Both the position numbers and the translations under genes were made by a program. The notes below the pieces were generated by a model. It ran no database searches. It was given only the letters and a program-made list of their open reading frames with translations, and was not told the origin of the DNA. From an uncultured Candidatus Saccharibacteria bacterium (lineage in GTDB: Bacteria; Patescibacteriota; Minisyncoccia; Phycocordibacterales; UBA9973), in NCBI GenBank assembly GCA_964573395.1, contig CAZNJI010000004.1, positions 27,379-91,378 on the forward strand: 64,000 bases of DNA, in the 5' to 3' direction. Below, piece after piece: positions 4,009 through 48,859 of the stretch. The first letter of the stretch is position 1. Each line of letters starts with the position of its first letter.

Positions 4009-6744
4009 GTGAAAAACAATAGAGTGCTTATCTGGCTCATTGTTTTAGTAAGTATCGGCAGTTTTCTGCCTCCTCTCTTCACGACTCCCGCAAAGGCCGT
4101 TACCTATCTCACCGAAGGGTATCGGCTTGTCTGGTCTGCACCTCCGTTATGGGAAGAAGCGGAGATTATCATCCTTCCCGAATCAACAGCTTTTATACCG
4201 CCTGAATCTGTTACGGGGTTTTTGGATGTATTACCGAGCCACACCGGTTCGTACTCAGGAGAACTTTTCTCTGTTACAGGGGACAGTGCGCGGCAATTTC
4301 TCGGTACCACAAAAGACGATGATGGATTGACGCTTTCGGCTGGTAACTACGAATTAGATATCTATAAAAATAAGCCGGTCTTTCAGGTTCGCCGGGAAAC
4401 GGTACTAGAAAAATTTGCTGCATTACTTATGCCAAGAGCGTATGCGGGAGAAGTATTTGATGATGAATACTATATAGGCACCATCCGCTTTACTATTACC
4501 GACGAACCGGAACCTGCCTGCTGTTCTTCGGTGTTGTTTCTGCCAGGACTGATGGCGTCGCGATTGTATGAAGGAGGGGAAAAGCGGTGGGAACCAACCG
4601 GAGACACTGATATTGAAGAATTATATTTGGATGAACAGGGAAAGAGTTTAAATGAAATAACTGCTACGGAAATTTTGGAAAAATTCGATGGTCCTTTATT
4701 TTTGAACAAAGATATTTACAAATCATTTCTCATTGACCTTGATAGTTTAAAACAGAGCAACACAATCGCTGACTATCAGGCAGTTTCTTACGATTGGCGT
4801 CTTTCACTCTCAGACATTCTTGCAGATGGAAGTATTGAACAAACGCTTCGATCGCTTGCTTCGGAATCAAAATCGGGGAAGGTAACGATCGTTTCCCATT
4901 CAAATGGCGGGTTGCTCGCAAAAGCGCTTATGAACGAACTTGGCCCGGATGCGGCAGACTTGGTTGACCAGATGATTTTTGTTGGAGTCCCTCAGCTTGG
5001 AACGCCGCAGGCAGTTGGAGCATTACTGCATGGGTATGATACTGGTTTGCCAACCAACTTAATACCATTCCTGCTTTCTCCGGAGCGCGCTCGAGATTTT
5101 GCCAAGAACATGCCCGGCGTGTATCAGCTCTTGCCGCAGCCTGACTATTACGAAAATGATGGCGTTTCCATCTATTCTCCGATCATCAGTTTCGAGTCCG
5201 GTGCGGCAACCGAAGCTCTTATCAATGAATATGGAACAACGATTGATACCGGCGAAGAACTCCATAATTTTCTCGTTGGTGCCGAAGGAAGAACGGCCCC
5301 ATTATTTAATGATTTAAAAAATCCTGGCGTTGCAAACAGTACGCTCCTTGAAAATACGAAGTTGCTCGCAGAAGCCGTTGGCTCATCGTGGGAGCCGCCG
5401 GAAGGGGTTGCGGTGCACGAAATTGCCGGCATCGGAGAACCAACGCTCTCTGGCATCACTTACAAAACCGTTCAAAAATGTACTCAGGTAATTCCGATTC
5501 CGCTTTCTGTTTTTCCCGGCTGTGCACAGTATGAGCCAACACTTTCATACGTGCCGAATGAGACCATTGACGGAGATGATACCGTAGTAGTGCCAAGCGC
5601 ACTTTTGATGGAAGAGAGCGGACAGATAAATCGGTGGTGGGTTGATTTAGCTGAACATAATCAATTTTTTAACTTTAAGAAAAATCGAGACCACGCAGAT
5701 CTCCTTGAGATTGATAATCTTCGATCTTTTATACTTGAAAATCTCATTACTAATTCATCTACAATACCTCCTGAGTTTATAGCCAACGAGAAGCCAATTA
5801 TTAGTAAAGGAAAACATCTATCTTTTATACTTCATTCACCGCTTTCTCTTTCTGCGGTTGATAAAAACGGCAATCGTACAGGCGAAGAATTCGATGATAT
5901 CCCTGGTGCTTCGTACAAAAGATATGGCGAGGTACAAGTGCTCCATGTCCCTGCCGATGTCGAGCCAACAATTAATTTAAATGGTATTTCTGATGGATCA
6001 TTCACGCTTGAAATCAAAGAGCTTGATAACGAAGAAATTGTTGCTGTTACTACGTTTTCTGGCATCCCATCCGTTGCGGATACTAAAGCAACAATTTCGT
6101 TTGCCGATGGTACGATTGAAAATGCTGGTGATCTTACGATCGACTATAACGGCGACGGTTCAACCGATATTGCACTCTCACCCGAGCCGGGCGAAGTCGT
6201 TACCCTCCCTGAAGCTTCCCTTGATGCAACGGCACCGGAAGCACGCATCGAGTTTTCAACTACGCTGAACAAAATTGCCATTACCGGATTCGATGAAAGC
6301 TCGGAAACGACGGACGCAACGGCTAAAAATAAAACTACCATTACTGATGCGGCAGGGAATAGTCTTGCGCTTACCCATGCAATCAAAGGGTCAAAAGCAA
6401 CTGCAATCGCAGAAATAAAACAGCTTGCCTACAATACCGCTGATACTATTTTTGCTCCCAAAACAGTGGTACGGTACCATTTCCTTAAACTGCCGAGATT
6501 GGGGCGTTATGCAGCATTTGTTGCCCACATTCGTACGCCTCATGAAAATTTGCTGGCACTCTATCATCCGGCTAAAGACAAGACCATGCTGATAACCATT
6601 CCGAAGCAGCAGGCCGAACCTGACCTTACAAGCATCGCCCTCCTGCAAAAGCCGCCAAAAGGGTCGGCGGTAAAGCAGACGCTTAATGGTTTGGTGATTC
6701 CATTCGTGGAAACGAAACAAGGAAAAATGATTATTAAGTATTAA
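4009..6744 (+). CDS. Secreted alpha/beta-hydrolase, lipase-like (911 aa)
   Basis: GTG start and a signal peptide MKNNRVLIWLIVLVSIGSFLPPLFTTPAKA. Nucleophile elbow VTIVSHSNGGLLA is a GxSxG motif of lipase/LCAT/PGAP1 type. The long C-terminal region has no recognised motif. Confidence 0.55.
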   Translation: MKNNRVLIWLIVLVSIGSFLPPLFTTPAKAVTYLTEGYRLVWSAPPLWEEAEIIILPESTAFIPPESVTGFLDVLPSHTGSYSGELFSVTGDSARQFLGTTKDDDGLTLSAGNYELDIYKNKPVFQVRRETVLEKFAALLMPRAYAGEVFDDEYYIGTIRFTITDEPEPACCSSVLFLPGLMASRLYEGGEKRWEPTGDTDIEELYLDEQGKSLNEITATEILEKFDGPLFLNKDIYKSFLIDLDSLKQSNTIADYQAVSYDWRLSLSDILADGSIEQTLRSLASESKSGKVTIVSHSNGGLLAKALMNELGPDAADLVDQMIFVGVPQLGTPQAVGALLHGYDTGLPTNLIPFLLSPERARDFAKNMPGVYQLLPQPDYYENDGVSIYSPIISFESGAATEALINEYGTTIDTGEELHNFLVGAEGRTAPLFNDLKNPGVANSTLLENTKLLAEAVGSSWEPPEGVAVHEIAGIGEPTLSGITYKTVQKCTQVIPIPLSVFPGCAQYEPTLSYVPNETIDGDDTVVVPSALLMEESGQINRWWVDLAEHNQFFNFKKNRDHADLLEIDNLRSFILENLITNSSTIPPEFIANEKPIISKGKHLSFILHSPLSLSAVDKNGNRTGEEFDDIPGASYKRYGEVQVLHVPADVEPTINLNGISDGSFTLEIKELDNEEIVAVTTFSGIPSVADTKATISFADGTIENAGDLTIDYNGDGSTDIALSPEPGEVVTLPEASLDATAPEARIEFSTTLNKIAITGFDESSETTDATAKNKTTITDAAGNSLALTHAIKGSKATAIAEIKQLAYNTADTIFAPKTVVRYHFLKLPRLGRYAAFVAHIRTPHENLLALYHPAKDKTMLITIPKQQAEPDLTSIALLQKPPKGSAVKQTLNGLVIPFVETKQGKMIIKY

Positions 6745-6754
6745 AATAAAAGGT

Positions 6755-7186
6755 ATGGAATTTTTGAAAAGAAAAAATGTTTTTATTACTTCTTTAATTT
6801 TGGTTGCACTATTTGTGTTGCTTGGTCTTATAATGAGATCTAGTCAGTGTAAACTAGATTCGGTATGTAGTTCTTTATATTGGAGTGAATTTTGGAGCGA
6901 AAAACTTCCAACTATTCTATTTGTTTTAATAATCTCAATTTTTCCTTTCTCTACCCTTACTCTTTTTGCTCCAAATAATGCCTTTGATCGCTGGAAACGA
7001 TTTGCAGTATGGGCAGTTCCTATTCTGGCCTTGCTTACATTACCTATCATAAAAGCGCTTTCTGGTGATTGGCTTGATGTTGCAACTCCAACTCTTGTCT
7101 TTCTCTACGGCATTTATTTTATTATTTCTCTTGCCATTATCATCCGCGCATGGAGAAAGGAACGAAAGCTAAAAAATAATCCTTAG
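6755..7186 (+). CDS. Hypothetical polytopic membrane protein (143 aa)
   Basis: Three to four hydrophobic helices and a good RBS (AAAAGG). Confidence 0.5.
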   Translation: MEFLKRKNVFITSLILVALFVLLGLIMRSSQCKLDSVCSSLYWSEFWSEKLPTILFVLIISIFPFSTLTLFAPNNAFDRWKRFAVWAVPILALLTLPIIKALSGDWLDVATPTLVFLYGIYFIISLAIIIRAWRKERKLKNNP

Positions 7187-7467: not shown

Positions 7468-7522
7468 CCTCCAGATTATTGTCGCCAATTCTTGCATGAG
7501 AATTGGCTTTTTCTGTTAAAAC

Positions 7523-7550
7523 TTGCGCGCTTTTAAAACCCGTGTATAAT
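7523..7550 (+). promoter_or_regulatory. Candidate promoter for the rplC segment (TTGCGC, 16 bp, TATAAT)
   Basis: -35-like 7523-7528 and perfect TATAAT at 7545-7550. Confidence 0.4.
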
Positions 7551-7559
7551 CCTCCTACC

Positions 7560-7600
7560 AACCCGGTAGTAGATCTTATTGGCATAAGCTCACTACCGGG
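7560..7600 (+). promoter_or_regulatory. 5' leader stem-loop upstream of rplC (CCCGGTAGT ... ACTACCGGG)
   Basis: 9-bp perfect inverted repeat in the predicted 5' UTR. It shares the motif CCCGGTAGTAG with the rpsS leader. Confidence 0.4.
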
Positions 7601-7670
7601 CAGTTAAATACTCTTTAAATGGTCCAATACCCAGCCGTAATTTCAAATTTACAGCTCGGCAAGAACATTC

Positions 7671-10175: not shown

Positions 10176-10182
10176 TTTTCAA

Positions 10183-10210
10183 AAACTCCCGTACGGGGAG
10201 TTTTTGCTAT
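10183..10210 (+). terminator. Rho-independent terminator (AAAAACTCCC-GTAC-GGGGAGTTTTTGC)
   Basis: Hairpin plus T-run after rplB. Confidence 0.7.
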
Positions 10211-10220
10211 ACTTTCCACC

Positions 10221-10625
10221 ATGGAATCTTCGCATCAGTCTTCGAAAAAGCAGTTCTCTGTTACTGCTCGGGCAAACAGCTTAAAGCATGCCCTGCGGGG
10301 AATCAGGCTCTTTTTCAAAACCCAGCACAATGCCTGGATCCAGCTTGCGATTGCCATTGTTGCGCTTTTTGCCGGCTTTTTCTTTTCTATTACCAAAGCG
10401 GAATGGATTGCGGTCATTTTTGCCATTATCATCGTTTTCATAGCCGAAGCTTTCAATACTGCCATCGAAATAGACATTAATTTAACGAGCCCTGAGTATC
10501 ACCCCTATGCCAAAGATACTAAGGATGTGGCAGCCGGAGCGGTACTCCTTGCCGTAGCAGGGGCTGGAATCATCGGAATTGTCGTCTTTTTGCCCTATAT
10601 AAAAGATTTTTTGTTGCCCAAGTAG
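10221..10625 (+). CDS. dgkA: Diacylglycerol/undecaprenol kinase family membrane protein
   Basis: LKHALRGI...IQLAIAIVALFAGF...AEWIAVIFAIIIVFIAEAFNTAIE...AKDTKDVAAGAVLLA are DgkA hallmarks, and there are three TM helices. Confidence 0.75.
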   Translation: MESSHQSSKKQFSVTARANSLKHALRGIRLFFKTQHNAWIQLAIAIVALFAGFFFSITKAEWIAVIFAIIIVFIAEAFNTAIEIDINLTSPEYHPYAKDTKDVAAGAVLLAVAGAGIIGIVVFLPYIKDFLLPK

Positions 10626-10645
10626 TAGAGCTTATTTTCCTTATC

Positions 10646-10915
10646 ATGTTCTACATTTACAGCCTTCAAAGTAAAAATCATCCTCGCCAGTTTTATTTTG
10701 GTTTTACTCGAGATTTGAAGAAAAGGGTTGTAGAACATAATAAGGGTTTAAATATTTCAACGAAACGATACAAACCATGGGAGCTTATTTATTACGAAGC
10801 TTGCCTGTCTGAAATAGACGCAAAACGTAGGGAAAAATATTTAAAAACAACTGTGGGACGCCGAATGTTTAAAAAACGCATACGAGATTACCTGTTAATT
10901 ACCACTAAGAATTGA
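10646..10915 (+). CDS. Stand-alone GIY-YIG nuclease-domain protein (89 aa)
   Basis: YIYSLQS...YFGFTRDLKKRVVEHNKG...PWELIYYE...REKYLK is a GIY-YIG/URI-domain signature. It is paralogous to the gene at 32018-32281. Confidence 0.75.
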   Translation: MFYIYSLQSKNHPRQFYFGFTRDLKKRVVEHNKGLNISTKRYKPWELIYYEACLSEIDAKRREKYLKTTVGRRMFKKRIRDYLLITTKN

Positions 10916-10919
10916 GCTC

Positions 10920-11045
10920 ACTACTGGGCTAACCCGGTAGTAGAAACTGGCAGGCTTAGGATAGATAAAATACCTAAAAAGCCTTGCCAGTTCTTACTAT
11001 CCGGGTTGACTTCTTTGGCTAATTTGCTACTATAGCCGGTACGGC
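10920..11045 (+). repeat. Structured intergenic leader with repeated CCCGGTAGTAG / CTACTA(N)CCGG motifs and small hairpins
   Basis: Hairpin CTACTGGG-CTAA-CCCGGTAG at 10922-10941; imperfect inverted repeat AACTGGCAGGCTT/AAGCCTTGCCAGTT; direct copies of CTACTATCCGGG at 10995 and CTACTATAGCCGG at 11027. Confidence 0.5.
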
Positions 11046-11069
11046 CTAGAAGGGCTTGTTTTATTTGCA

Positions 11070-31559: not shown

Positions 31560-31944
31560 TGGTGGAGATGGGGGGAATTGAACCCCCGTGCAATAGGGAA
31601 TGACATACAAATCTCCGTGCGCAGCACAACTTGGGCGTTTAAGCGATGCACGAACAAGTCGTGCAAACTGTGCATTGCCGATCCTTTACGTTGTCGTTTT
31701 GCTCTTAAGGAAAAGAGCAGAATCTATTCTGATGTTCTTACACCTCTACCTTTCTATCAGAAATTGAAAGGAGAGACGCCAGCTTGGCTTACGCGAAAGC
31801 TGGAGCGAAGGCCTTACCGAAGTAAGGAGACTTCACCTTAGCGACACTGTTGCCAGATATCGTGTGAACGAAGGTTGCGGGATTACGTCCGTACCCGGCA
31901 CGCATGCATGTCTAATTCTTCTATTGTCGATGCCGATCATCCCC
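31560..31944 (-). ncRNA. ssrA: tmRNA (SsrA), about 385 nt, with encoded CCA
   Basis: Minus-strand 5' end GGGGAUGAUCGGCAUCGAC resembles the tmRNA consensus GGGGCUGAUUCUGGAUUCGAC. The 3' end is GGGGGUUCAAUUCCCCC-CAUCUCC-ACCA, a T-arm plus acceptor pairing with the 5' GGGGAUG, with a G3:U wobble. The internal ORF GCU AAG GUG ... GCG UAA predicts the tag AKVKSPYFGKAFAPAFA. smpB lies just upstream. Confidence 0.85.
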
Positions 31945-32017
31945 CTAAATCATTTTGCTCTGCAAAATGATCGGGCGAACATCCTAGCCCGAAACGGGCG
32001 GATGTTTTAGCCATAAA

Positions 32018-32281
32018 TCACTTATTCTGCGATTTTAAATAATCAACTTTTAGTTTCCTTTTAAACCGACCTGCCCACAGGCTTTTGAGAAATCTTTCTC
32101 GGCTAAATGCCTGTACCTTACTCTCAAATTTTTCTGAGTGAATAAGCTCAACAGGTAAGCGGTTTTGTGTGGCAGGAACATGTCCATCTTGATGACGTTT
32201 AAGTCGATTATTTAAATTGCTTGTACAACCGACGTATAACTTTTTATCTTTAAGAGATATGAGTATATAGACGATATACAT
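32018..32281 (-). CDS. Stand-alone GIY-YIG nuclease-domain protein (87 aa), wedged between smpB and ssrA
   Basis: MYIVYILISLKDKKLYVGCTSNLNNRLKRHQDG...ELIHSE...RERFLK is a GIY-YIG/URI signature. Paralogue of the gene at 10646-10915. Confidence 0.75.
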   Translation of the reverse strand: MYIVYILISLKDKKLYVGCTSNLNNRLKRHQDGHVPATQNRLPVELIHSEKFESKVQAFSRERFLKSLWAGRFKRKLKVDYLKSQNK

Positions 32282-32293
32282 ACAAGTAAGGGT

Positions 32294-32731
32294 TTACGCA
32301 TATTCGCGCCGCAGTTCGCGGTCGAGGTCGCGTTTTTTGATTCTGTCGCGTTTGTCAAAGCGCTTCTTTCCGCGAACAATGGCCACTCGGGCCTTAATTC
32401 GCTTGCCTTTGGTATACAGCGAAACAACGACTGCTGTCAAACCTTTTTCTTTCATTCTTCCAGAAATATCAAGCAGTTCTTTTTTATGGAGCAACAGCTT
32501 TCGGGAACGGTACGGGTCGAAGTCTTCTTTGGTATTCCCAGGCTGATGCGGGGGTATGTGGGCGCCAAGTAAAAACAGTTCGCCCGAAAGGAGGGCAACA
32601 TAGGAACCGTCGAGGCTGCCTTTGTGCGTTCGAATCGATTTCGTTTCGGTGCCCAAAAGCTCAATCCCTGCTTCGTAGGTCTCAAGGATTTCATACTCAA
32701 ACGAAACTTTTTTGTTCGACAAAAGCGTCAT
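32294..32731 (-). CDS. smpB: SsrA-binding protein SmpB
   Basis: YEILETYEAGIELLGTEVKSIR...GSYV...LLGAHIPPH...RKLLLHKKEL motifs. Confidence 0.92.
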   Translation of the reverse strand: MTLLSNKKVSFEYEILETYEAGIELLGTETKSIRTHKGSLDGSYVALLSGELFLLGAHIPPHQPGNTKEDFDPYRSRKLLLHKKELLDISGRMKEKGLTAVVVSLYTKGKRIKARVAIVRGKKRFDKRDRIKKRDLDRELRREYA

Positions 32732-32766: not shown

Positions 32767-34539
32767 ATGGAAAAATATAAGACTGAATGGGATTTAGCTC
32801 TCCTCTATAAAAGCGATAATGATCCGCAAATCGAAAAAGACATGCAGACAATTGAAAAAGCATGTGCCGATTTTGAGAAAAAATATCGGAACAAAGACTT
32901 TACCTCAACTCCAGAAAAACTTCGAAAGGCTTTAGAGGATTCAGAAGCGCTCAGTAAAAAAATAATGGGACATAAGCCATGGTGGTATTTCATGCTTCGA
33001 TCTCATATGGACTCAGAAAATAGCGTAGCAAAGGCCATGGTAACACAATTTGAACAGCGTCTTACAAAATCATCCAACAAAATAACTTTTTTTTCACTAA
33101 AAGTTGCTGCGATTCCTAAAAAAGACCAAAAGAAATTTCTCACCAATTCTTTACTTAAGCCATTTAAATATAATCTTGAGCATTCATTTGAAAATGCAAA
33201 ATATAACTTGACTGAGGCGGAAGAAAATATGGCTAGCCTGTTTTCACAAACCAGTTATTCAATGTGGGTAAGCGCACAAGAGAAAAGTTTATTCCAGCAG
33301 TTAATTGATTTTAAAGGAGAAAAGATTCCCGTCTCTAAAGCAAGAGAATTACTCGCCGATCTTCCCAAAAAGGACCGTCATGAGTTATATAAAAAAATCA
33401 CTGACACACTTAAATTTGTTAGTCAATTTGCCGAAGCCGAAATAAACGCAATATGCAATTATAAAAAAGTACTCGATGAAAAGCGTGGATATAAAGAACC
33501 CTACAGTGCTTCGGTTATTGGTAATGAAAATACAGAAAAAGAAATTGAATTGCTCGCATCTGTCGTTACTAAATATTTTTCAATTAGTCATCGGTTTTAT
33601 AAATTACACGCAAAACTTCTTAAAGAAAAAACGATAACCAGAGCAGATGCAAGTGCAAAAATCGGAGAGATAAAAAAGAAATTTAATTTCCCTGAAATGG
33701 TTAAGGTTATTAATAATGCTTTTGAAAAAGTTGGGCCATGGTATGTCGACATGTTCAAAAAATATTTAACCCAAGGACAAATTGATGTATATCCACGGAA
33801 AGGAAAATACTCAGGAGGGTATCACTGGAAAACCGGCAGTAATCCTTCTTTTATTTTACTTAACCATGTTGACAGTATTAGATCAGTAGAAACACTGGGA
33901 CATGAGATGGGACATGCTTTTCATGGCGAGCTGAGTCAATTGCAGCCTCCGCGCTATCAAGATCATCCATCTTCAACGGCAGAAGTGGCGAGTACGTTTT
34001 TTGAACAGATTGTTACCGACGAAATTGAAAATATTCTTTCCGATAAAGAGAAAATTATTATGACTCATAGTAAATTGGCGCGCGATATCCATACTATTTT
34101 TACTCAAATTGCTTGCTTTAATTTTGAAACAGACCTGCATAAAAAAATTAGAGGAAAAGGACAGCTCTCAAAAGATGAAATAGCAGAATTAATGGGAAAA
34201 CACTTAAAGGCATACACTGGCCCAGCTATGAAAATTAATTCTGATGATGGATATATTTTTGTTTCTTGGATGCATCTGAGAATGTTTTTCTATACGTATA
34301 CCTATGCATATGGACATATCATAAGTAAGGCAATGTATGAGTGCTGGAAAAAAGATCGTTCTTTTGAATCAAAAGTAAGAGAATTTCTCAGTGCTGGAAG
34401 TTCAATGAGTCCTCGAGATATCTTTAAAAAAATTGGAATTGACATTAACGATCCAAAGTTTTTTGAGTCAGGACTTAAAGCCATTGATGCTGATATCACT
34501 AAGCTTGAAAAACTAGCAAAGAAAAACGGGCTGATTTAA
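32767..34539 (+). CDS. pepF: Oligoendopeptidase F, M3B family
   Basis: Zinc motif HEMGHAFH plus a downstream Glu; 590 aa. Confidence 0.85.
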   Translation: MEKYKTEWDLALLYKSDNDPQIEKDMQTIEKACADFEKKYRNKDFTSTPEKLRKALEDSEALSKKIMGHKPWWYFMLRSHMDSENSVAKAMVTQFEQRLTKSSNKITFFSLKVAAIPKKDQKKFLTNSLLKPFKYNLEHSFENAKYNLTEAEENMASLFSQTSYSMWVSAQEKSLFQQLIDFKGEKIPVSKARELLADLPKKDRHELYKKITDTLKFVSQFAEAEINAICNYKKVLDEKRGYKEPYSASVIGNENTEKEIELLASVVTKYFSISHRFYKLHAKLLKEKTITRADASAKIGEIKKKFNFPEMVKVINNAFEKVGPWYVDMFKKYLTQGQIDVYPRKGKYSGGYHWKTGSNPSFILLNHVDSIRSVETLGHEMGHAFHGELSQLQPPRYQDHPSSTAEVASTFFEQIVTDEIENILSDKEKIIMTHSKLARDIHTIFTQIACFNFETDLHKKIRGKGQLSKDEIAELMGKHLKAYTGPAMKINSDDGYIFVSWMHLRMFFYTYTYAYGHIISKAMYECWKKDRSFESKVREFLSAGSSMSPRDIFKKIGIDINDPKFFESGLKAIDADITKLEKLAKKNGLI

Positions 34540-38576: not shown

Positions 38577-38644
38577 ATATAAAGTAAAACATGAAGTTGT
38601 GAATTATTCCAACCTTGGCTAGAATCAGTGTCAGTTCTTTCGAT

Positions 38645-38718
38645 GGGAGTATAGCTCAGTTGGTTAGAGCATCGAGCTTATACCTCGAGGGTCGATGGTT
38701 CGAGTCCATCTACTCCCA
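38645..38718 (+). tRNA. tRNA-Ile with anticodon UAU (reads AUA); CCA not encoded
   Basis: Cloverleaf folded by hand. Acceptor GGGAGTA/TACTCCC; D-stem GCTC/GAGC. Anticodon stem TCGAG/CTCGA with loop CTTATAC, so anticodon TAT. T-arm GATGG-TTCGAGT-CCATC. Discriminator A. Confidence 0.8.
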
Positions 38719-38829
38719 CCCGTTTGGATGCATTATCTGAAGGCTTACCTGACCTTTATCCACAAGCAGGATTCTGGCATCTGGTTTCTCTGTGGACTTT
38801 CGTATCTCTACTGCGATACAATAAAGGGC

Positions 38830-48361: not shown

Positions 48362-48859
48362 ATGCATCAAAAAGATAAAAAACTTTATATTATTCCAGGA
48401 TACCGAGAATCTACTAGGAAAAAACCCTATAGACAGATAGCAGCCCTTGGGTTAAAGAAAAAATATAAAATCATTAAGATAAATCCAAAATGGAACGTAT
48501 CGTTAGTATCACAAATCGTTCCTGTGGGTAAGAATGATGTTATTTTTGGTTTTTCTCTCGGGGGTATTCTTGCTCTTTTGATTGCTCAAAAATTTGCTTG
48601 TAAAAAAGTAATACTTGCTTCTGCTACTACGCATAAATGTGCTAATGATTTAAAAACATTTCTACCTGCTGATATCATAAAAGATATTAGAAAAACAAAG
48701 AAAAATGTTGCAAGTAAGGTAATTAGGTTCTATGGAGAGTTCGAACGAGAGGATGCAATAAAATACTTACCGGAAGGTGCTTCTATACAGAAATTTATTT
48801 CAAAAACTGAGCACAATCTATCCGAGGCTTATATTGATGCTATTGATAAGGTACTTTAA
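48362..48859 (+). CDS. Small alpha/beta-fold serine hydrolase (RBBP9/YdeN-like esterase)
   Basis: Nucleophile elbow VIFGFSLGGILAL is a GxSxG motif; ~165 aa; very AT-rich gene. Confidence 0.5.
   Translation: MHQKDKKLYIIPGYRESTRKKPYRQIAALGLKKKYKIIKINPKWNVSLVSQIVPVGKNDVIFGFSLGGILALLIAQKFACKKVILASATTHKCANDLKTFLPADIIKDIRKTKKNVASKVIRFYGEFEREDAIKYLPEGASIQKFISKTEHNLSEAYIDAIDKVL

Follow-up and report, generated by a model that had tools for sequence, protein, structure and literature searches.

Why should a gene for a minimal GIY-YIG nuclease lie between dgkA and the ribosomal-protein gene rpsS, and how might it have come there? The gene, here GIY1, is found in a stretch of 64,000 nucleotides (nt) from an uncultured Candidatus Saccharibacteria bacterium (assembly GCA_964573395.1, contig CAZNJI010000004.1, positions 27,379 to 91,378), referred to as the window. 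Homologues and loci anchored on RplB identify the host as a Paceibacteria/Nomurabacteria-like bacterium of the candidate phyla radiation (CPR). An earlier note on this DNA had taken the 89-amino-acid (aa) open reading frame (ORF), together with a paralogue between smpB and ssrA (GIY2), for selfish, site-specific insertions resembling homing endonuclease genes. The ORF is real, starting 20 nt 3' of dgkA and ending 154 nt 5' of rpsS (11070), where the note had given 150 nt. We favour, with moderate confidence, the reading that GIY1 is the single gene of a selfish or semi-domesticated insertion cassette of about 310 base pairs (bp), and that GIY2 represents an older lineage of a like gene. Anatomy, scars, empty sites, derivatives and base composition together accord better with a compact cassette that was inserted than with an ordinary resident gene. 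The parts of the unit are as follows.

10617-10928, forward strand: complete cassette of 312 bp (left arm, 8-nt spacer, GIY-YIG ORF, right arm), delimited by a regular expression for the shared ends and by RNA folding.

10617-10637, forward strand: left arm CCCAAGTAGTAGAGCTTATTT; its homologue at the rny, uvrB and glyA loci is CCCGGTAGTAGAGCTTTGATT.

10639-10745, forward strand: internal hairpin in which the AUG region CCTTATCATGTTCTACA pairs with the V-E-H-N-K codons TGTAGAACATAATAAGG.

10646-10915, forward strand: GIY1, an 89-aa catalytic-core GIY-YIG nuclease of subfamily fam1 (Pfam, AlphaFold model, GC content at third codon positions).

10910-10928, forward strand: right arm AATTGAGCTCACTACTGGG, overlapping the TGA stop codon at 10913-10915; the homologous arm at the other loci reads AATCAAAGTCTCACTACCGGG.

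The two proteins are related, as the earlier note had it, though only distantly. GIY1 (ATG start) matches PF01541 with E 8e-15 and 55.3 bits, and the 87-aa GIY2 with E 1e-13 and 51.7 bits, both above the curated cutoff of 22.6 bits; they share 34% identity over 83 aa. Each belongs to a large subfamily, fam1 for GIY1 and fam2 for GIY2, with hundreds of database members at 60-75% identity, and a search of cluster representatives returned 5,900 clusters at E <= 1e-3, mostly of 85-125 aa. GIY1 and GIY2 are members of two old subfamilies and not recent duplicates. No third GIY-YIG copy or pseudogene was found in the six frames of the window by phmmer at maximum sensitivity.

An alignment of 65 fam1 and fam2 sequences has Y5, Y17, G19, R27, H31, E51, R62, E63 and K67 invariant, so that the catalytic set is intact. 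The AlphaFold (AF2) model of GIY1 has a mean predicted local distance difference test score of 91.9, with the order strand-strand-helix-strand-helix-helix-helix. Its top Foldseek matches are GIY-YIG domains throughout, the best being the SLX1 nuclease domain (root-mean-square deviation 1.2 A over 70 columns, 34% identity), and the nearest Protein Data Bank entries by sequence are 1ywl and 1zg2 (UPF0213) and 7wme and 7cq2 (SLX1/HIGLE). No Pfam domain was found beside GIY-YIG, and the 89-aa model is catalytic core throughout. By sequence and predicted fold, both proteins are catalytic-core-only, single-domain enzymes of SLX1/UPF0213 type rather than I-TevI-type homing enzymes. Searches of 50,697 phage records and of IMG/VR gave no phage relatives, PADLOC gave no credible match to a defence system, and Rfam detected no intron in the window.

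The flanks of the gene travel with it. The 20 nt 5' of the ATG are conserved whatever the neighbouring gene, and their reverse complement stands directly after the stop codon. The regular expression delimits units of 308-317 bp in the window and in L002, L099, L101, L104, L113 and L114, L009 being the exception among the fam1 loci. The inverted-repeat arms measure 21 nt, are 81% complementary and lie 266-270 nt apart in L113, L104, L101, L099 and L002; the rny-linked brackets score 11, a value reached by 1.3% of 1035 control ORFs. Even the divergent GIY-YIG genes of L031 and L047 are bracketed, by unrelated repeats matched in 0.3% and 1.3% of the controls. Each element combines one GTAGTAGAGC-type with one GTAGTGAGAC-type arm, giving four central A.C/G.U positions, and outside these all cells pair in the six elements compared. 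In six of the 21 stem pairs both partners have changed, and in no pair has one changed alone; this covariation is suggestive but, with six sequences, not significant. In minimum-free-energy RNA folds of the L113 and window units the terminal stem closes the whole ORF, and both contain a second conserved hairpin in which AUGUUCUA pairs with UAGAACAU. The arms of the internal hairpin in the window are 17 nt long and 94% complementary (fold z-score -4.1), and the equivalent pairing occurs in L113, L002 and L114.

The same unit is found in four genomic contexts. Upstream of fam1 genes in seven species we found rny four times and uvrB, glyA and dgkA once each, the last in L009; in the window species (window and L001) the gene likewise follows dgkA. 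It is co-directional with the upstream gene at every locus and lies 15-26 nt after it (56 nt in L009). The 3' end of rny is thus the commonest home of fam1 in the sample (4 of 7 species), and neither rny nor uvrB lies in the window.

The rny loci also carry what look like scars of insertion. Perfect 4-nt direct repeats flank the arms at all four (TTTG, TACG, TTTG, TACG) and at uvrB (TAGG). At rny the left arm starts within the penultimate codons, where G|CC CGG TAG recreates an Ala-Arg-stop ending, and directly past the right arm stands a second, native rny end: TTT GCC CGA TAA, TAC GCG AGA TAA, TTT GCA AGA TAA and TAC GCG AGA TAA. All four leftover ends read F/Y-A-R-stop with synonymous differences only. 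The F/Y codon is the same on the left and on the right within each genome, yet differs between L113 and L104 despite an RNase Y identity of 87%. At dgkA the first 9 nt of the left arm, CCC AAG TAG, are in frame with the gene and form its last two codons (Pro-Lys) and stop.

The dgkA-rpsS site itself requires knowledge of its surroundings, which comprise the following features.

10180-10206, forward strand: terminator-like hairpin directly after rplB, with an 11-bp stem (consensus scan).

10221-10625, forward strand: dgkA (Pfam DAGK_prokar, E 2e-31), its 3' end fused to the left arm of the cassette.

11006-11033, forward strand: promoter-like TTGACT-16-TG-TACTAT ahead of rpsS (consensus scan).

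A fam1 gene occupies the site in the window, L001 and L009; L013, L014, L018 and L049 have it empty, with dgkA abutting the rpsS promoter. L009 is the closest sampled genome by RplB, and its fam1 gene has a different left junction. The promoter pattern TTGACw...TGCTAnTAT also precedes rpsS in L009, L013, L014, L018 and L049. The terminator-like hairpin after rplB and this conserved promoter split the ribosomal-protein cluster irrespective of the GIY-YIG gene, and the earlier view that the gene had interrupted an operon is therefore not borne out. Nor is the junction normally contiguous, as had been assumed. Among 80 related loci anchored on RplB (67-77% identity), 74 were informative for the rplB-rpsS distance, which was at most 250 nt in just 17, 251-1000 nt in 30 and more than 1 kb in 12, while rpsS was not within 3.3-4 kb of rplB in the other 15. 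The gaps hold unrelated cargo of up to more than 4 kb (loci L009-L088), including dgkA (8 ORFs by Pfam), FtsW, ComEC, FolD, superoxide dismutase, PAP2, glycosyltransferases and toxin-antitoxin genes (AbiEii/HicA), and only 2 of 134 gap ORFs are GIY-YIG genes. This junction (10176-11069 in the window) is a site of general variability across the clade.

Other repeats were seen in this region of the relatives. The rplB-rpsS gap of L034 contains a 223-aa IS200/RAYT-like protein (5718-6389, motif NHFHIL; RAYT, REP-associated tyrosine transposase; REP, repetitive extragenic palindrome) with the palindrome GTACTAGGCCTTGCCTAGTAC on both sides, which appears to be a CPR example of a genuine REP/RAYT-type arrangement. 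Short palindrome copies (e.g., AGGTGTCCAACACCT) lie on both sides of rplW in L035 (3683-3958) and L083 (1390-1671), so that repeated hairpins occur in the ribosomal-operon spacers of some relatives.

Over about 4 kb the window matches L001, a contig of its own species, exactly save for 17 differences, all of them at 10640-10737 (L001:3469-3566), within the start-codon hairpin. Among them are five synonymous and four non-synonymous codon changes; the few bases ahead of the ATG also differ, a 1-nt indel being one of the changes there. Such a patch over the first third of GIY1 bears the signature of a conversion-like tract, which would have come from another functional allele or paralogue.

Two hairpins in the window have the ends of the cassette and contain no ORF.

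7562-7600, forward strand: mini-1, a 39-nt hairpin CCCGGTAGTAGATCTTAT-TGGC-ATAAGCTCACTACCGGG in the 5' leader of rplC (motif search with one mismatch; z -4.65).

10933-11005, forward strand: mini-2, a 73-nt hairpin whose ends are CCCGGTAGTAGA...TACTATCCGGG and which adjoins the -35 box of the rpsS promoter.

No other cassette-ended ORF-less hairpins were seen in the 64 kb, which contain a single ORF-bearing unit and these two diverged hairpins. The arms of mini-2 are 20 nt long and 80% complementary, and its fold has -40.6 kcal/mol and a z-score of -7.5. Mini-1 is missing from the otherwise conserved rplC leader of L009, L011, L012, L013, L014 and L018. These six relatives have a small native hairpin a few bases downstream of the mini-1 site that the window does not have, and mini-1 may accordingly not be a perfectly clean insertion.

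The rplC leader (window 7520-7670, and the same six relatives) is conserved in having a promoter TTGCRN-17-TGTATAAT, followed by CCAATTAAAA and a small covarying hairpin, and then by AATGGTCCAATACCC, a second hairpin, CAAGAACAT and the ATG. All Rfam matches here stayed below the gathering score, and the region may be an undescribed ribosomal-protein leader.

The base composition of both genes is foreign-looking. GC content at third codon positions (GC3) is 0.31 for GIY1 and 0.295 for GIY2, about 2 standard deviations (SD) under the mean of 70 window ORFs (0.49 +/- 0.09), and the immediate neighbours have values of 0.51-0.56. Of 11 other loci, 10 likewise have a GIY-YIG gene with a GC3 below that of its host gene upstream, and in GC-rich hosts the composition is partly ameliorated. 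Three other window ORFs (32767-34539, 48362-48859 and 6755-7186) have a GC3 of 0.22-0.29, similar to the GIY-YIG genes or lower, and may be further horizontally acquired genes. One of them is a 590-aa oligoendopeptidase-like gene divergent from smpB.

The mechanism that we propose would run as follows. An imperfect inverted repeat of about 21 nt brackets the ORF for a minimal SLX1/UPF0213-type nuclease, which probably recognizes the shape of DNA and not a long sequence; we propose this because SLX1-type enzymes are structure-specific. The cassette would insert co-oriented with a housekeeping gene, at its stop codon or a few bases from it. Since the left arm can supply codons and a stop, CC CGG TAG (Ala-Arg-stop) at rny and CCC AAG TAG (Pro-Lys-stop) at dgkA, the host protein would remain intact. 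The nuclease gene would be transcribed by read-through from the host gene, and with its start codon buried in a conserved hairpin, translation is probably low. The hairpins at 7562-7600 and 10933-11005 would be derivatives or non-autonomous relatives of the cassette. We infer further that the nuclease itself drives insertion, by break-and-copy or cut-and-paste, that the effect of the hairpins extends to DNA and is not confined to RNA, and that the element may still be active.

The second copy would represent a second, older lineage, and its sole sampled site is smpB-ssrA, with the following features.

31560-31944, reverse strand: ssrA, the transfer-messenger RNA (tmRNA) gene (Rfam RF00023, 103 bits).

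31945-32017, reverse strand: 73-nt spacer with two tandem hairpins and the motif GGCTAAAACA..TGTTCGCCCGA..TGTT (elsewhere listed as GGCTAAAACA..TGTTCGCCCGAACA..TGTT), from the flank listing.

32018-32281, reverse strand: GIY2, an 87-aa catalytic-core GIY-YIG nuclease of subfamily fam2 (Pfam E 1e-13; homologues at smpB-tmRNA).

32294-32731, reverse strand: smpB (Pfam SmpB, E 1e-46).

GIY2 is placed 12 nt after smpB and 73 nt ahead of the tmRNA, and fam2 lies between these genes in 5 of 5 carriers (window, L106, L109, L111, L117), which are phylogenetically scattered Paceibacteria. The four independent homologues (65-70% identical) stand 2-95 nt after smpB and 64-131 nt before the tmRNA. Among carriers GIY2 is better conserved, at 65-70% identity, compared with 44-57% for the adjacent SmpB. 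No gene separates smpB from the tmRNA in L119 (13 nt apart), L089 (5 nt) and L096 (3 nt). L119 is the contig that also carries L009 and is the nearest sampled relative, with an SmpB 60% identical to that of the window, and the SmpB of L089 is as near to those of the carriers as these are to each other in the identity matrix, so that L089 nests among them. Presence and absence of GIY2 among the relatives sampled by SmpB therefore indicate patchy occupancy, with at least two gains or two losses. Pairing SmpB with GIY2 matches gave no usable occupancy estimate, the protein index omitting known cases such as the GIY-YIG gene of L009.

The two-hairpin spacer upstream of the mature tmRNA 5' end is kept in 5 of 5 GIY2 carriers and absent where smpB abuts ssrA. 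L106 and L117 (3481-3500 in both) have, in the 20 nt before the GIY2 ATG, an inverted copy of the tmRNA 5' end (-5 to +14), and there the ORF is bracketed by a repeat with the tmRNA acceptor strand as its right arm. Taken together, some relatives have uninterrupted junctions at either locus, and neither copy is at the identical position in all of them. The two copies do both stand beside conserved genes, as the earlier note had stressed, but they come from two old subfamilies and fam1, in this small sample, is mostly at rny. What holds up of site-specific selfish insertion is the precise sites beside conserved genes, the patchy presence and the low GC3, and for copy 1 also the element-like ends and ORF-less derivatives.

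Some further observations concern this locus and the RNA genes. L111 has the first spacer motif GGCTAAAACA twice. Directly 3' of the tmRNA in L106 (4175-7267), genes for a 521-aa serine recombinase and a HEPN/AbiV protein make up what looks like an island integrated at ssrA. ARAGORN missed the window tmRNA that Rfam scores at 103 bits, and may miss CPR tmRNAs systematically. Elsewhere in the window, a tRNA-Ile gene with anticodon TAT (38644-38721) is overlapped in its 3' part by a mechanically called 1409-aa ORF from 38695, which places the true start of that gene further downstream.

Several results weigh against a mobile cassette. The sample is small, and carrier loci were found through the GIY-YIG gene itself, which biases the sampling. 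The arms in the window are cut by single-base indels and with a score of 6.5 are no outlier on their own among the 1035 control ORFs; for GIY2, bracketing repeats within 45 nt of the ORF are not above control level, with none in the window, L109 and L111. Flanking direct repeats are missing at 3 of 5 independent insertion sites (window cassette, glyA and mini-1). No near-identical pair was seen in different contexts, fam1 copies being 64-77% identical and star-like, and recent movement is therefore not demonstrated; a context-based fam1 tree was uninformative, the 64-77% star showing no clustering by neighbour. The identity of rny-linked GIY-YIG proteins instead tracks that of RNase Y (77/75/70% vs 87/78/69%), which fits long vertical co-inheritance. 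Mini-2 has a positional counterpart in L009 (8690-8761) where compensatory changes preserve the stem. This points away from mobility and to selection for a structural role, for instance as terminator or insulator, and suggests that mini-2 may have been co-opted as a structural element. Finally, we know of no GIY-YIG enzyme that acts as a transposase, and how a core of 89 aa would recognize its target is not obvious.

A bolder version of the favoured reading, which we put forward tentatively, is that the unit of about 310 bp represents an undescribed class of mobile element. Its SLX1-like nuclease would recognize the hairpin or cruciform formed by its own repeats, insert at the last codons of essential genes, rebuild their C-termini and spawn ORF-less hairpins. 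The cassette encodes a GIY-YIG nuclease only and no recognized transposase, its product not being of the HUH/Y1 (IS200-like) type. On this reading it would be the GIY-YIG counterpart of the REPIN-RAYT system (REPIN, REP doublet forming a hairpin) and may equal the agent of the GIY-YIG insertions in CPR rRNA genes. We found neither a hairpin-bracketed GIY-YIG cassette nor associated miniature elements described in the literature, our coverage of which is incomplete, so that an earlier description is possible.

Less probable, in our judgement rather unlikely, is that both genes are ordinary, vertically inherited UPF0213/YhbQ-type housekeeping nucleases of repair or recombination. The repeats would then be RNA structures of the gene, serving translational control, RNase III-type processing from the host transcript or termination, and neighbours would vary through scrambling of gene order in small, fast-evolving CPR genomes. 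Invariant catalytic residues, conservation above that of SmpB, the constant smpB-ssrA position of fam2, an identical 17-nt spacing after rny in four species with divergence that tracks RNase Y, the prediction of both start-codon hairpin and terminal stem in the RNA fold, and the absence of phage and defence-system matches all agree with this. However, ordinary rearrangement does not explain why the same 20-nt arms accompany the ORF beside four unrelated neighbours, and the perfect 4-nt direct repeats, the leftover codon-like rny 3' end past the right arm, the hairpins elsewhere in the genome that have identical ends but no ORF, the absence of an insert in the nearest relatives and a GC3 two SD under that of host genes are likewise left unexplained.

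That these are classical free-standing homing endonuclease genes, which cut an empty conserved site sequence-specifically and are copied in by repair as in phage T4 Seg/Mob, is improbable: patchy occupancy of precise sites by conserved sequence (the rny C-terminus, the smpB/tmRNA junction), an AT-rich composition, weak N-terminal matches to TIGR01453 and a PHROG homing-endonuclease family, and the GIY-YIG ORFs in non-intron insertions of CPR rRNA genes (PMC11270868) speak for it, but the proteins of 87-89 aa are catalytic core only, without a DNA-binding domain, the TIGR01453 match is confined to residues 4-31 and at 23.7 bits falls short of the cutoff of 56, sequence and fold are nearest to SLX1 and UPF0213 and not to I-TevI, phage relatives are lacking in the databases searched, fam1 occupies at least four different sites, and terminal inverted repeats, target-site duplications and ORF-less hairpin copies are not products of homing.

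If the cassette reading is true of at least one large subfamily, it has consequences for a very abundant group of genes. Mini GIY-YIG genes are usually annotated as 'GIY-YIG nuclease family protein' or 'excinuclease ABC subunit C' and have no known role; their multiplicity and scattered positions in small CPR genomes would be explained. One more nuclease family would join the few enzymes tied to bacterial miniature repeats, and with it a compact, possibly structure-guided insertion system at gene 3' ends that spares the host protein. For annotation, the stop codon and last residues of a host gene could be element-derived, and uvrC-like names for such ORFs would be misleading.

Among known systems, the free-standing GIY-YIG homing genes (T4 Seg, I-TevI-like) resemble the cassette in being small nuclease genes wedged between conserved genes, co-transcribed, patchy and AT-rich, with a hairpin over the start. 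They differ in residing in phages and introns and in encoding larger enzymes, of about 200-270 aa, that end in a DNA-binding module at the C-terminus. Terminal inverted repeats, target-site duplications and miniature derivatives are lacking in them.

The proteins themselves are closer to the SLX1/UPF0213 branch (YhbQ, YazA, EF2693, BH0048; COG2827), being single domains of about 90 aa with the same catalytic residues, and by analogy with this branch GIY1 and GIY2 may cleave branched or hairpin DNA. We know of no bacterial UPF0213 gene described with inverted-repeat brackets, insertion in gene 3' ends or ORF-less hairpin copies. SLX1, which cuts branched and stem-loop DNA and has been grouped with YhbQ and YazA, differs from GIY1 and GIY2 in having a zinc-finger domain and needing SLX4 (PMC7017083).

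The ORF-bearing intervening sequences of rRNA genes are similar in that a long stem closes an insert with one small ORF, inside or beside an essential gene. In CPR bacteria, 30 GIY-YIG ORFs have been reported in non-intron insertions of rRNA genes, and their spread there was left unexplained (PMC11270868). These share lineage and protein family with the cassette, whereas their hosts are rRNA genes and ours are protein-coding genes and smpB-ssrA; the likeness is drawn from their description. A survey of horizontal transfer in Patescibacteria (PMC12455944) also includes a GIY-YIG protein among the genes that are predicted to have passed from this group to other bacteria.

The arrangement as a whole is reminiscent of REPIN-RAYT and of pairs of miniature inverted-repeat transposable elements and insertion sequences, in which inverted repeats surround a nuclease gene, short ORF-less hairpins elsewhere in the genome have the same ends, and a low ORF copy number goes with a long-lived association with the lineage. 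RAYTs are, unlike the cassette enzyme, HUH/Y1 tyrosine transposases, and REPINs number tens to hundreds of copies compared with two cassette hairpins in the 64 kb. By this analogy, a long-lived and mostly vertical association with occasional re-insertion would reconcile the facts presented here.

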